Source: Escherichia phage JY01
Strand: one strand, 5' to 3'
Sequence record: OR995200.1
Length of the DNA stretch: 64,000 nucleotides
Shown here: positions 59,615 through 63,737 of the stretch, piece after piece
Layout of the letters: each line of letters opens with the position of its first letter
Numbering within the stretch: the stretch's first letter is position 1
Position numbers and translations under genes: made by a program
Notes under the pieces: model-generated
Seen by the model: only the letters and a program-made list of their open reading frames with translations
What the model was told of the DNA's origin: nothing
Databases searched by the model: none

Positions 59615-62600
59615 ATGGCTACTTTAAAACAAATACAATTTAAAAGAAGCAAAACGGCAGGTCAACGTCCAACTGCTTCAGTATTAGCCGAAGGTGAATT
59701 GGCTATAAACTTAAAAGATCGTGTACTTTTTACTAAAGATGATCAAGGAAATATTATTGACTTAGGTTTTGCTAAAGGCGGTAGTATTGACGGGAATGTT
59801 ATTCATAAAGGCAATTATAACCAAACTGGCGATTATACTTTAAACGGTACATTCACCCAGACTGGTAATTTTAATTTAATCGGTATTGCTCGAGTAACTC
59901 GTGATATTATTGCTGCTGGGCAGATTATGACTGAAGGCGGAGAACTTATTACAAAAAGTTCAGGAACGGCACACGTTCGTTTTCATGATTCCGCCGACCG
60001 TGAACGCGGTATTATTTTTTCTCCTGCTAATGACGGTTTAACTACACAAGTAGTTAACATCAGAGTTCAAGATTACAAAGCTGGTTCAGAAAGCACTTTC
60101 GCTTTTAATGGAAATGGTTTGTTTTCTTCACCAGAAGTTTTTGGGTGGAAATCTGTATCAACTCCGGTAATTTATACCAATAAAGTTATCACCAATAAAA
60201 AAGTTAAAGATGATTATGACATCTATTCGATGGCAGACAATGTTCCATTGTCTGAAAGCACTACTGCTATTAATCATCTTCGTGTTATGCGTAATGCAGT
60301 TGGTTCTGGTATTTTCCATGAAGTTAAAGATAATGATGGAATAACATGGTATAGTGGAGATGGATTAGACGCTTATCTTTGGTCATTTACTTGGAGCGGC
60401 GGAATTAAATCAAGTCACTCAATTTCCATCGGTTTAACACCCGGACCTAAGGATTACTCAATATTAGGACCGTCTAGTATCGCTTTAGGAGATAATGATA
60501 CTGGATTTAAATGGCATCAAGACGGATATTATTTCAGTGTTAACAATGGCACAAAAACGTTTTTATTTAGTCCCAGCGAAACAACTAGCCTAAGAAAATT
60601 TGTAGCTGGATATTCTACTAACGGAACCGATTTAACTACTCCTCCAACTGAAAATTATGCTCTTGCTACTGTAGTGACATACCATGATAATAACGCGTTT
60701 GGGGATGGTCAGACTCTTTTAGGATATTATCAAGGCGGTAACTATCATCATTATTTCCGCGGCAAGGGCACTACAAACATTAATACTCACGGCGGTTTGT
60801 TAGTTACTCCAGGCAATATTGACGTTATTGGTGGTTCTGTTAATATCGATGGTAGAAATAATTCTTCTACAGCGATGTTTAAAGGTAACACAACAGGTAG
60901 TAGTTCTGTGGATAACATGACAATTTCTGTGTGGGGTAATACATTTACTAATCCTAGCGAAGGTAATCGCAAAAATGTCATGGAAATTTCCGATGCAACT
61001 AGCTGGATGAGCTATATTCAAAGACTTACTACTGGTGAAGTAGAAATGAACGTTAACGGTTCATTTGAATCATCTGGTGTTACTGCTGGAAATAGAGGAG
61101 TTCACACAACAGGCGAAATTTCATCTGGAGCAGTGAATGCTCTTCGCATTTGGAATGCAGATTATGGAGCCATTTTTAGACGTTCAGAAGGTAGTCTTCA
61201 TATTATTCCAACTGCTTATGGTGAAGGCAAAAATGGTGATATTGGTCCACTTCGTCCATTTAGTATAGCTTTAGATACTGGTAAGGTTGTTATTCCAGAT
61301 TTAGAATCAAGTTATAACACGTTTGCTGCAAATGGCTACATTAAATTTGCTGGTCATGGGGCTGGTGCCGGCGGTTATGATATTCAGTATTCACAAGCTG
61401 CTCCTATTTTCCAAGAAATCGATGATGCTGCTGTAAGCAAATATTATCCTATTGTTAAACAGAAGTTTTTAAACGGTAAAGCTGTCTGGTCTTTAGGTAC
61501 TGAAATTAATTCAGGTACATTTGTTTTACATCATTTGAAAGAAGACGGTTCACAAGGCCATACATCAAGATTTAATGCTGATGGTACAGTTAACTTCCCG
61601 GATAACGTTCAGGTCGGCGGCGGTGAAGCTACTATTGCTCGTAATGGTAATATTTTCTCAGATATTTGGAAATCGTTTACTTCTGCGGGAGAAACCACAA
61701 ATATTCGCGATGCAATAGCTACTCGTGTTTCTAAAGAAGGCGACACGATGACTGGTAAATTGACTTTATCGGCAGGCAATGATGCTCTCATTTTAACTGC
61801 GGGCGAAGGTGCTTCATCACATATCCGTAGTGATGTAGGTGGTACAAGTAACTGGTATATAGGCAAAGGCGGCGGCGACAATGGTCTAGGTTTTTATAGT
61901 TACATTACACAAGGCGGTGTATACATAACAAATAACGGCGAAATATCGCTTTCTCCTCAAGGTCAAGGAACATTTAATTTTAATAGAGACCGCCTTCATA
62001 TAAACGGTACACAATGGGTTGCGCACCAAGCTGGTGATTGGGGAAACCAATGGCGACAAGAAGCGCCAATATTTGTAGATTTTGGCAATGTCGGTAATGA
62101 TAGTTATTACCCGATTATCAAAGGAAAATCTAGTATTACTAATGAAGGATACATATCGGGTGTTGATTTTGGTATGCGACGCACTACTAACCAATGGGCT
62201 CAGGCTATTATCCGTGTTGGTAACCAGGAAAATGGTTCTGACCCACAAGCTATCTATGAATTTCACCACAATGGAGTTCTGTATGCTCCTAATATGGTTC
62301 AAGCTGGAGCAAGATTATCAGCTGGTGGAGGTGATCCGGTATGGCAAGGCGCATGCGTTGTTATTGGTGATAATGATACTGGATTAGTTCATGGCGGTGA
62401 TGGACGAATTAACATGGTTGCAAATGGAGTGCATATTGCTTCATGGTCTTCATCCCATCATGAACACACTGGGCTTTGGGCCACCGACGGCGCGTTTTGG
62501 ACTGAAACCGGAAGAGCTATTATTTCATTTGGACATTTAATTCAACAGAATGACAGCTATTCAACATATGTCCGCGATGTTTATGTCCGCTCTGATATTC

Positions 62601-62926
62601 GTGTTAAAAAGGACCTAGTTAAATTTGAAAATGCTTCTGAGAAGCTTTCAAAAATTAATGGTTACACTTATATGCAGAAGCGAGGCCTAGATGAAGAAGG
62701 TAATCAGAAATGGGAACCAAACGCTGGGTTAATTGCTCAAGAAGTTCAAGCTATTTTACCTGAATTGGTTGAAGGCGATCAGGATAGTGAAGCTTTACTT
62801 CGTTTGAACTATAACGGTGTAATTGGTTTAAATACAGCTGCAATCAATGAGCATACTGCAGAAATTGCAGAACTTAAGTCAGAGATTGAAGAGCTTAAAA
62901 AATTAGTTAAATCATTGTTAAAATAA
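59615..62926 (+). CDS. 37: long tail fibre distal subunit gp37 with C-terminal intramolecular chaperone domain
   Basis: 1103 aa; C-terminal ~110 aa carry the S74-type chaperone signature (SDIRVKKD...[15 protein letters not shown]...) and a coiled coil. Confidence 0.9.
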
Positions 62927-62931
62927 AATGA

Positions 62932-62945
62932 GGGGCTTCGGCCCC
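62932..62945 (+). terminator. stem-loop between genes 37 and 38
   Basis: GGGGC-TTCG-GCCCC between the gp37 stop and the gp38 SD; may attenuate or stabilise the transcript. Confidence 0.5.
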
Positions 62946-62957
62946 TTGGAGGTTTAT

Positions 62958-63737
62958 ATGGCAGTTGAAGGACCGTGGGTAGGATGGTCTGCGAGGGTAC
63001 AAACTGGAGACCCTTGGATGGCTGGTGCCGCGCAGAGATTGAGAATGGGAATTCCGTTTTGGATGAGTAATATGATAGGTCGATCTGTTGAAGTAATTCA
63101 CACACTTGGAGCGGACCATAACTTCAATGGTCAATGGTTCCGAGATAGATGTTTTGAGGCAGGTAGTGCACCTATAGTGTTTAATATCACTGGAGATTTA
63201 GTATCATATTCTAGAGATGTTCCTTTATTCTTCATGTACGGAGATACACCTAATGAATATGTTCAATTGAATATACACGGCGTAACGATGTATGGTCGCG
63301 GCGGGAATGGTTGGGCTGCTGGAGCGATTGGAGCGTCTGACGGTGGTGTATGTATCCAAAATGATATAGGTGGACGTCTACGAATTAATAACGGGGGAGC
63401 TATTGCTGGAGGCGGCGGCGGTGGCGGTGGATATTCGCAAGCCAATAACTGGGCAGGAAAATATGTATGTGGAGGCGGCGGTGGTCGTCCATTTGGTTTA
63501 GGCGGAAATAATGGTGCTCGATGGCCTGGTGGAAATGCTAGCTTAACAGCACCAGGTGCTGGTGGTAATACTGGTACAGGGTATTATGCAGGTGGAGGTG
63601 GTGAAGTTGGTCAGCCAGGACAATATGCTAATCCAGGTGCTGGTTATTCAACACCTCCGACAAATCCTGGTGCTGCTGTAGCAGGATCAGCTCCAACATG
63701 GCAAAACGTTGGAGCTGTATACGGTTCAAGAGTATAA
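62958..63737 (+). CDS. 38: gp38 tail fibre adhesin, T2/T6-type, glycine-rich
   Basis: 259 aa from the ATG at 62958 (GGAGG SD); poly-Gly tracts (GGGGGGGG, GGGGG); ORF-track start at 62928 lies inside a hairpin. Confidence 0.85.

Follow-up and report, generated by a model that had tools for sequence, protein, structure and literature searches.

The receptors of phage T2 are the outer-membrane proteins OmpF and FadL. That genes 37 and 38 of T2-type phages form a receptor-recognition module has been established by earlier work (Drexler 1986; Tetart 1998; Trojet 2011; Dunne 2018; Terasaki 2026). In T2, gp37 is proteolytically processed and gp38 caps the fibre (Drexler 1986, as cited in PMC3157838); autoproteolytic release of the chaperone after trimerisation has been shown for T2, through the same citation, and for S16. 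The S16 pair gp37-gp38 (PDB 6F45; Dunne et al. 2018), whose host receptor is Salmonella OmpC, combines an intramolecular chaperone (IMC) bearing an SDxRxKK cleavage motif with a gp38 that has tryptophan prongs and a polyglycine-II (PGII) sandwich with loops. For S16 and PP01 it is established that virions contain gp38 as a monomer seated on the trimer of gp37, where it binds an outer-membrane protein. The N-terminal tryptophans of gp38 dock on the gp37 tip (PMC7917993), and binding of OmpC by the PP01 gp38 loops has been demonstrated by experiment (Terasaki et al., mBio 2026, PMC12892980).

The window analysed here, a stretch of 64,000 nt from Escherichia phage JY01 (OR995200.1), almost certainly carries the distal module by which a Tequatrovirus of the T2 type recognises its receptor (Table 1). 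The genes follow the order 34-35-36-37-38-t, also found in T2, PP01 and Shigella phage Sf23. T2 (LC348380) shares with this locus the order of the genes, the Pfam architecture of both proteins and a hairpin in the spacer; it differs in its hypervariable segments, in its IMC allele, in a gp38 of only 47% identity and in the length of gp37 (1341 aa in T2 vs 1103 aa here). The nearest relative in the phage collection is Sf23 (MF158046); a stretch of 24 kb and the module alike share 97-98% nucleotide identity with it, and its gp37 falls into the same 90% cluster as ours. With E-values from 1e-12 to 1e-72, the family matches of the module are not a product of chance.

Table 1. Features of the gene 37-38 region and its downstream context (window coordinates)
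Feature	Position	Strand	Basis or remark
Gene 37, long tail fibre distal subunit (1103 aa + stop)	59615..62926	+	ORF; Pfam; identical to WRO06311.1 (Escherichia phage JY01)
DVYVR (aa 988-992), predicted mature gp37 C-terminus and gp38 docking strand	62576..62590	+	alignment to S16 and fPS sites
S74-type intramolecular chaperone domain (aa 993-1103, 111 aa)	62591..62923	+	Pfam PF13884, PHROG and PDB matches
Heptad-patterned C-terminal helix of the chaperone	~62828-62923	+	
Spacer hairpin between genes 37 and 38: GC-rich stem of 8 pairs, core GGGGC/GCCCC (62932-62945), loop UUCG	62929..62948	+	folds
Shine-Dalgarno GGAGG of gene 38, 5 nt ahead of ATG	62948..62952	+	sequence; kept in relatives
Gene 38, receptor-recognising adhesin (259 aa + stop); GP38 domain aa 45-259	62958..63737	+	Pfam, PHROG, PDB; identical to WRO06312.1 (JY01)
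Receptor loop A (W119-I124, WAAGAI)	63312..63329	+	limits from PMC12892980; same as PP01
Gly8 tract (aa 151-158), glycine-rich motif ahead of loop B, GGGGGGGG	63408..63431	+	GGA GGC GGC GGC GGT GGC GGT GGA
Receptor loop B (Q161-V170)	63438..63467	+	limits from PMC12892980
Gly5 tract (aa 172-176) in GGGGGRPFG motif	63471..63485	+	
Receptor loop C (N184-W189, NNGARW)	63507..63524	+	limits from PMC12892980
Receptor loop D (N204-Y209, NTGTGY)	63567..63584	+	limits from PMC12892980
Mosaic patch (~75 nt, loops D and E): DNA like PP01 and SF; rest of gene like Sf23 and G4507	63576..63650	+	difference maps
Gly4 tract (aa 212-215), between loops D and E	63591..63602	+	
Receptor loop E (N225-S231, NPGAGYS)	63630..63650	+	limits from PMC12892980
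Near-consensus late promoter AATAAATA, upstream of gene t	63742..63749		promoter scan
Gene t (holin), cut by window end; context, outside the module	63768..64000	+	annotation of Sf23, PP01 and T2

gp37 and its C-terminal chaperone

Two Pfam domains were observed in gp37: Gp34_trimer (aa 449-551) and Peptidase_S74 (aa 993-1052). The latter match (E=1.1e-12; 48.4 bits vs a cut-off of 22; model positions 1-57 of 58) begins at the nucleophile serine, Ser993, whose codon lies at 62591 and from which the protein reads S-D-I-R-V-K-K-D. The domain occupies the last 111 of the 1103 residues, i.e., the extreme C-terminus, in agreement with the preliminary description, which had placed an S74-type chaperone signature on the last ~110 residues of gp37. 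It is also matched by the PHROG tail-fibre families phrog_1699 and phrog_14572 (E of about 1e-47 to 1e-49). We observed the catalytic dyad as well, Ser993 and Lys998 lying five residues apart in the arrangement S-D-x-R-x-K: SDIRVK of gp37 aligns with SDRRIK of S16 and with ADLRAK of MyRF (7DC3), the latter having Ala at the Ser position. Read straight from the sequence, the end of the protein has a heptad a/d pattern, with I, H, I, L, I, L, V and L at tail positions 85, 88, 92, 95, 99, 102, 106 and 109.

The sequence around the predicted cleavage site, DVYVR^SDIRVKK, aligns with DLNVS^SDRRIKK of S16 and DVYIR^SDGRLKI of fPS (PMC7917993). From these homologues we infer that gp37 would be cut between Arg992 and Ser993. 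The S16 proteins are more distant homologues (gp37 vs 6F45_A, E=2.4e-44; gp38 vs 6F45_D, E=3.4e-50) with other loops, and gp37 here has an extra segment ahead of the tip. The S74 domains of endosialidases, T5 pb1 and MyRF resemble that of gp37 in the Ser/Lys dyad five residues apart, in the motif G-[LV]-IAQEV-x2-[IV]-LPE-x-V, in a C-terminal helical region and in their position at the end of a trimeric fibre, although the sequence similarity is distant (MyRF, E=0.042). Unlike in those proteins, release of the domain would here also provide a separate adhesin with its docking site.

gp38, its receptor loops and the predicted receptor

The 259-aa adhesin claimed for gene 38 was recovered in full, since both of its Pfam families are matched over their entire models: Gp38_N (PF21721; E=2.7e-20, positions 1-40 of 40) and GP38 (PF05268; E=6.8e-72, positions 1-218 of 218). 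Like the S74 match, both clear the Pfam cut-offs by a wide margin. [quoted passage not shown] Because Gp38_N is matched from its position 1 and the alignment with S16 gp38 begins at residue 1, we set the start of gene 38 at 62958. The ATG at 62928, given in the ORF list and lying inside the hairpin, was rejected on the grounds of this homology and of the Shine-Dalgarno (SD) sequence. Tryptophans W7, W20 and W35 are invariant in 13 members of the gp38 cluster and align with the S16 tryptophans. The gene lies directly downstream of the chaperone-ended gp37 gene, across a spacer of 31 nt. The same layout recurs in 12 IMG/VR relatives, in which the N-terminal type of gp38 co-varies with the type of IMC. 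Counting genes for gp38 overall, we found more than 800.

The modular design of gp38, with glycine-rich motifs (GRM) and hypervariable segments (HVS), is known from the literature. Our alignment with relatives (18 sequences) agrees with the expectation that glycine-rich motifs are conserved while the segments between them, here loops A-E, vary. The RBD (aa 41-259) differs from that of PP01 gp38 at 2 of 219 residues (A198S, V253I; 99% identity), both outside loops A-E. Loops A-E match those of PP01 in every residue and fall exactly on the published limits, and the identity extends to all of the critical residues tested in PP01: Y159, K168, Y169, G208, Y209, A228 and Y230. According to the PP01 study (PMC12892980), adsorption depends strictly on residues 158-170, a cross-link forms between G208 and OmpC loop 5, Y209 is essential, and loop E is the main specificity determinant, where a hydrophobic residue is required at A228. 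Close relatives have A, S, N or H at position 228. Sf23 differs in loop D (NTGQ-YW vs NTGTGYY here) and at the tip of loop E (N228 vs A228 here), which are exactly the residues governing OmpC recognition in the PP01 work. Given this identity of the five loops with PP01, we predict OmpC of the E. coli O157 type as the receptor, and the proposal that host range is set by the gp38 loops is well borne out by this identity. Loop B of PP01 may also contact LPS (PMC12892980), so OmpC may not be the sole determinant.

Two other readings of the module have to be weighed. In an arrangement of the T4 type, gp38 would be a non-structural assembly chaperone and the tip of gp37 itself would bind the receptor; what speaks for it is a shared gene name and gene position only. 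BLASTP finds no similarity between T4 gp38 and gp38 here (E=1.4), T4 gp37 has Collar and Phage_fiber domains rather than S74, and gp38 here matches adhesin families in full, being 99% identical to an RBD that was cross-linked to OmpC. The preliminary description had assigned the module to the T2/T6 type, unlike T4, naming an alignment of gp38 to the T4-type chaperone as refuting evidence. Its assignment stands: such an alignment was looked for with the result just given, and the combination of S74, Gp38_N and GP38 is shared by T2. The Pfam, PDB and T4 comparisons thus refute the T4-type arrangement, to which we leave practically no probability. It is also quite improbable, in our opinion, that a T2-type module as described here uses OmpF, FadL, Tsx, OmpA or LPS instead of OmpC. 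Related phages have gp38 variants that recognise Tsx, OmpF or OmpA (PMC12032242), specificity can shift by single substitutions (PMC3157838), and LPS may contribute through loop B. Against this stand the identity of the five loops and of every critical PP01 residue, and the fact that the closest relatives are the O157 phages PP01, AR1, SF and HY01.

Intergenic hairpin, glycine tracts and mosaicism

The GGGGC-TTCG-GCCCC hairpin described between genes 37 and 38 is indeed present and extends to 8 pairs. When relatives were folded singly, 20 of 20 had a hairpin at the equivalent site of the spacer, built from several different stem sequences. Column-wise covariation was computed on an 11-sequence alignment in which stems and loops are out of register; 75.8% of cells were paired, not above shuffles or slid partners. 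The annotation of phage G4507 calls the hairpin a 'putative transcriptional terminator', and its stable stem of GC pairs, capped by a UUCG loop, would suit an intrinsic terminator that ends the gene 37 transcript and leaves gene 38 to be expressed separately. However, no T-run follows the hairpin on the + strand, and the terminator scan flags the - strand only; for lack of that T-run, a + strand terminator is not supported. In addition, the promoter scan found no late-promoter match between the hairpin and gene 38, the gene 38 SD begins at the last base of the stem, and the equivalent hairpin of T4 belongs to the translation-initiation region of gene 38 (PMC3014915). A terminator is therefore unlikely, and a decay barrier, partial attenuation or SD presentation are likelier roles.

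Of the residues of gp38, 24% are glycine, a share that rises to 33% within residues 110-259, and the G+C content of the gene is 47.8% vs 36.2% for the window. The poly-Gly tracts reported between variable segments are in place, Gly8 exactly where it had been located and Gly5 as well, and are joined by Gly4. Across the 18-sequence alignment, the conserved motifs are GRGGNG, a Gly5-9 tract, GGGGGRPFG, PGxG and GxGG; the counterpart of Gly8 has 5-9 Gly in distant relatives, while five Gly are found at the Gly5 tract in 18 of 18. The preliminary description had called the GGN repeats hot spots of both slippage and recombination, and these two parts fared differently. The lengths of Gly8, Gly5 and Gly4 are constant in the 13 proteins of the gp38 90% cluster, whose length differences fall at the N-terminus and in loop D, and Tandem Repeats Finder reports a weak (GGCGGT)3.3 repeat in the tract DNA (score 33). 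Being invariant among close relatives, the tracts do not behave as slippage sites, and slippage as an active process was rejected.

Recombination around the Gly motifs is, on the other hand, supported by sequence comparison, and its occurrence near these motifs has been published before (Tetart 1998, cited in PMC3157838). One relative carries a 51-nt duplication with Gly-tract repeats at its ends. In the present gene, we observed a mosaic structure: its DNA has diverged widely from PP01 gene 38 at synonymous sites, save for the patch of loops D and E. The left breakpoint of this patch lies within 63564-63575, which codes for the PGAGGN Gly motif, and the right one within 63641-63691. It is tempting to speculate that the patch arose by a recent micro-conversion, through which an adhesin of the Shigella type was redirected to O157-type OmpC, and that the structurally conserved 37-38 hairpin is a functional RNA element tuning gp38 output against that of gp37 and marking the module boundary; we regard this combined scenario as possible yet rather doubtful.

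Proposed mechanism and meaning

The following course of events would fit the homologous systems. Genes 36-37-38 are probably transcribed from the late promoter TATAAATA at 58919. Trimerisation of gp37 would be aided by its own C-terminal S74 chaperone (aa 993-1103), after which Ser993, activated by Lys998, would cut the Arg992-Ser993 bond, so that the chaperone departs and the DVYVR tip is exposed. A single gp38 would then dock on this tip, using the domain at its N-terminus (aa 1-40; Trp7, Trp20, Trp35). The C-terminal domain would form a polyglycine-II helix sandwich of Gly-rich motifs, from which loops A-E would project to bind the host outer-membrane protein, with loop E (A228, Y230) presumably entering the cleft between OmpC loops 5 and 7. 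As with the cleavage, it is from homologues that we infer the 3:1 stoichiometry, the incorporation of gp38 into virions and the identity of the receptor. The fibre would thus require gp38 and gp37 in a ratio of 1:3.

The family, the structure, the mechanism and the exact proteins (those of JY01) are already on record, and the locus opens no new question. The D/E patch is a clean natural case of loop-level exchange at experimentally identified specificity residues, and the window yields a concrete receptor prediction, O157-type OmpC. Since the host range of T2-like phages is set by this module, it is relevant to the selection or engineering of phages directed at E. coli O157 and Shigella.

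Identity of the gp37–gp38 module

The window is a segment of a Tequatrovirus (T-even) genome; Shigella phage Sf23 is 97.3% identical to its last 24 kb, the O157 phages AR1, CAM-21 and BECP11 show 95–97% identity over the same stretch, and 569 phage records match the 1.4 kb around the gp37/gp38 module. The ORFs follow the order 34 (1289 aa), 35 (371 aa), 36 (218 aa), 37 (1103 aa), 38 and t, as in T2, PP01 and Sf23, and the exact deposited sequences are WRO06311.1 (gp37) and WRO06312.1 (gp38) of Escherichia phage JY01.

Features of the gp37–gp38 region (window positions)
Feature	Position	Location
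gp37, long tail fibre distal subunit	59615–62926 (+)
Gp34_trimer-like domain (aa 449–551)	60959–61267	gp37, mid-shaft
SDIRVKKD, start (codon 993)	62591	gp37
Hairpin, 8 pairs	62929–62948	37–38 spacer
Hairpin core, GGGGC-UUCG-GCCCC	62932–62945	37–38 spacer
gp38, adhesin	62958–63737 (+)
Gly8 tract	63408–63431	gp38
Gly5 tract	63471–63485	gp38
Gly4 tract	63591–63602	gp38

The S74-type chaperone signature expected on the gp37 tail was found in its last 111 aa, which begin with SDIRVKKD and are heptad-patterned at their end. Residues 993–1052 fit the Pfam Peptidase_S74 profile, the match starting at model position 1 (E = 1.1e-12); the tail also matches numerous PHROG tail-fibre families at their C-termini, and gp37 of Salmonella phage S16 (PDB 6F45) aligns with the last 192 aa (E = 2.4e-44). 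A weaker alignment is that of the self-cleaving domain of human MyRF, in which ADLRAK stands opposite SDIRVK and the motif IAQEV..ILPE.V is common to both. S16 gp37 is cut at DLNVS^SDRRIKK (^, cleavage point), releasing the last 113 residues and exposing the gp38 docking surface (PMC7917993). The equivalent site here is DVYVR^SDIRVKK, which makes Ser993 and Lys998 the dyad and Arg992 the expected end of mature gp37. The mid-shaft Gp34_trimer-like domain (PF21446, E = 4.9e-8) is also present in gp37 of T4 and T2.

Downstream, gp38 comprises 259 aa, with its start ATG (62958) 5 nt after GGAGG; a start at 62928, called mechanically, lies inside the hairpin and was ruled out by homology. The protein matches Gp38_N (positions 1–40 of 40) and the GP38 profile (1–218 of 218, E = 6.8e-72) in full, as well as gp38 of S16 (E = 3.4e-50) and PP01 (PDB 9V85, E = 4.9e-143), only A198S and V253I differing from the latter over aa 41–259. 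Glycine makes up 24% of gp38, and its G+C content is 47.8% vs 36.2% in the window. W7, W20 and W35 are invariant among the 13 members of its 90% cluster. One member, P0004 (WP_282836739.1), is listed for an E. coli contig of 5.24 Mb and others for Salmonella and Shigella "genome" assemblies (contigs of ~166 kb); such records are probably phage DNA sequenced alongside bacterial isolates.

The preliminary description had assigned the module to the T2/T6 rather than the T4 type, an assignment that an alignment of gp38 with the T4-type chaperone would contradict. No similarity to T4 gp38 was detected (E = 1.4), and thus this objection falls away. T4 gp37, unlike its counterpart here, carries Collar and Phage_fiber domains and no S74, whereas in T2 both proteins share their domains with ours, T2 gp38 being 47% identical. 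The T2/T6-type assignment therefore holds.

The 37–38 hairpin and transcription

A GC-rich hairpin occupies the 37–38 spacer in every relative folded, with stems GAGGGGC/GCCCCUU, GGGCC/GGCCC, GGGGG/CCCCC and, in T2, AGAGGGC/GCCCUCU; the alignment used for a column-wise covariation count does not bring these versions into register. Even T4, despite its unrelated gene 38, has a CUUCGG-type hairpin there (L019:4613–4640). In T4, however, it lies between SD and AUG and shortens their 22-nt spacing to 5 nt (PMC3014915), whereas here it lies upstream of an SD at normal spacing; thus, the T4 mechanism does not apply.

One GenBank record labels the hairpin a "putative terminator". No T-run follows it on the + strand; on the − strand, where CATTTTATTT comes after it, it resembles a terminator. 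Exact late promoters, TATAAATA, occur only 42 nt before gene 34 (53852) and 31 nt before gene 36 (58919), and the promoter scan of the window found no late-promoter motif before genes 37 or 38, so these two probably share a transcript that runs through the hairpin. At 63742, 26 nt before gene t, there is a version with one mismatch, AATAAATA. The hairpin could block mRNA decay, attenuate transcription in part or help to present the SD.

Glycine motifs and variation in gp38

In an 18-sequence alignment, conserved glycine-rich motifs alternate with hypervariable segments in the classic pattern. The glycine repeats had been proposed as hot spots of both slippage and recombination, and only the latter stood. 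Slippage is not evident, since the three tracts are invariant among the 13 cluster members and the Gly8 DNA is merely a weak hexamer repeat. Lengths within the cluster range from 258 to 261 aa, owing to an indel of 2 aa in the N-terminal attachment domain and another of 1 aa in loop D; at position 228, the members have A, S, N or H. Among distant relatives, the first tract has 5 to 9 Gly, the second constantly 5.

Recombination, by contrast, is evident. Gene 38 is nearly identical to those of Sf23 and G4507 except at ~63576–63650 (loops D and E), a patch of ~75 nt whose DNA is identical to PP01 and SF, both of which differ elsewhere at many synonymous sites. Its left breakpoint (63564–63575) falls within DNA coding for the PGAGGN motif. 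The patch residues TG207-208, Y210 and A228 are those distinguishing O157-OmpC binders. In one relative (L004; IMGVR_UViG_2974787500_000001, 1501–2331), gp38 reaches 277 aa, and its loop B segment is duplicated exactly and in tandem (51 nt, YYSPFSQMRLTFGGGGG twice) between the Gly-tract coding repeats GGCGGTGGCGGCGG, the pattern that marks unequal crossing-over from one Gly motif to another. The N-terminal type of gp38 co-varies with the gp37 chaperone type, forming three allele classes, and a 98.5%-identical gp38 occurs in another genus, in the Mosigvirus Escherichia phage SF (L016, MH359124.1). In the SF record no CDS for gene 38 is annotated at this site; what stands there is a 186-nt "tail fiber protein" on the reverse strand. 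Such variation agrees with published exchange at conserved motifs (Trojet 2011, PMC3157838), a subject of earlier work (Tetart 1998, as cited in PMC3157838).

Predicted receptor and mode of action

PP01's published loop limits (PMC12892980) coincide exactly with the loop sequences of our gp38, NPGAGYS among them. In PP01, G208 (loop D) and Y230 (loop E) could be cross-linked to loops 5 and 7 of OmpC. Position 228, an alanine, needs a hydrophobic residue, Y159 and Y209 are both indispensable, and the stretch 158–170 is likewise required. All of these are identical here, which makes O157-type OmpC the predicted receptor. Borrowing the order of steps from homologues, we suppose that the chaperone would drive trimer folding of gp37 and then cut itself off, after which a single gp38 would dock via its Trp prongs and its polyglycine-II sandwich would present the five loops to the receptor.

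Overall, every element of the module described beforehand was confirmed in place, and its interpretation is supported apart from slippage. The module is textbook T-even biology, for which solved structures and exact database entries already exist.
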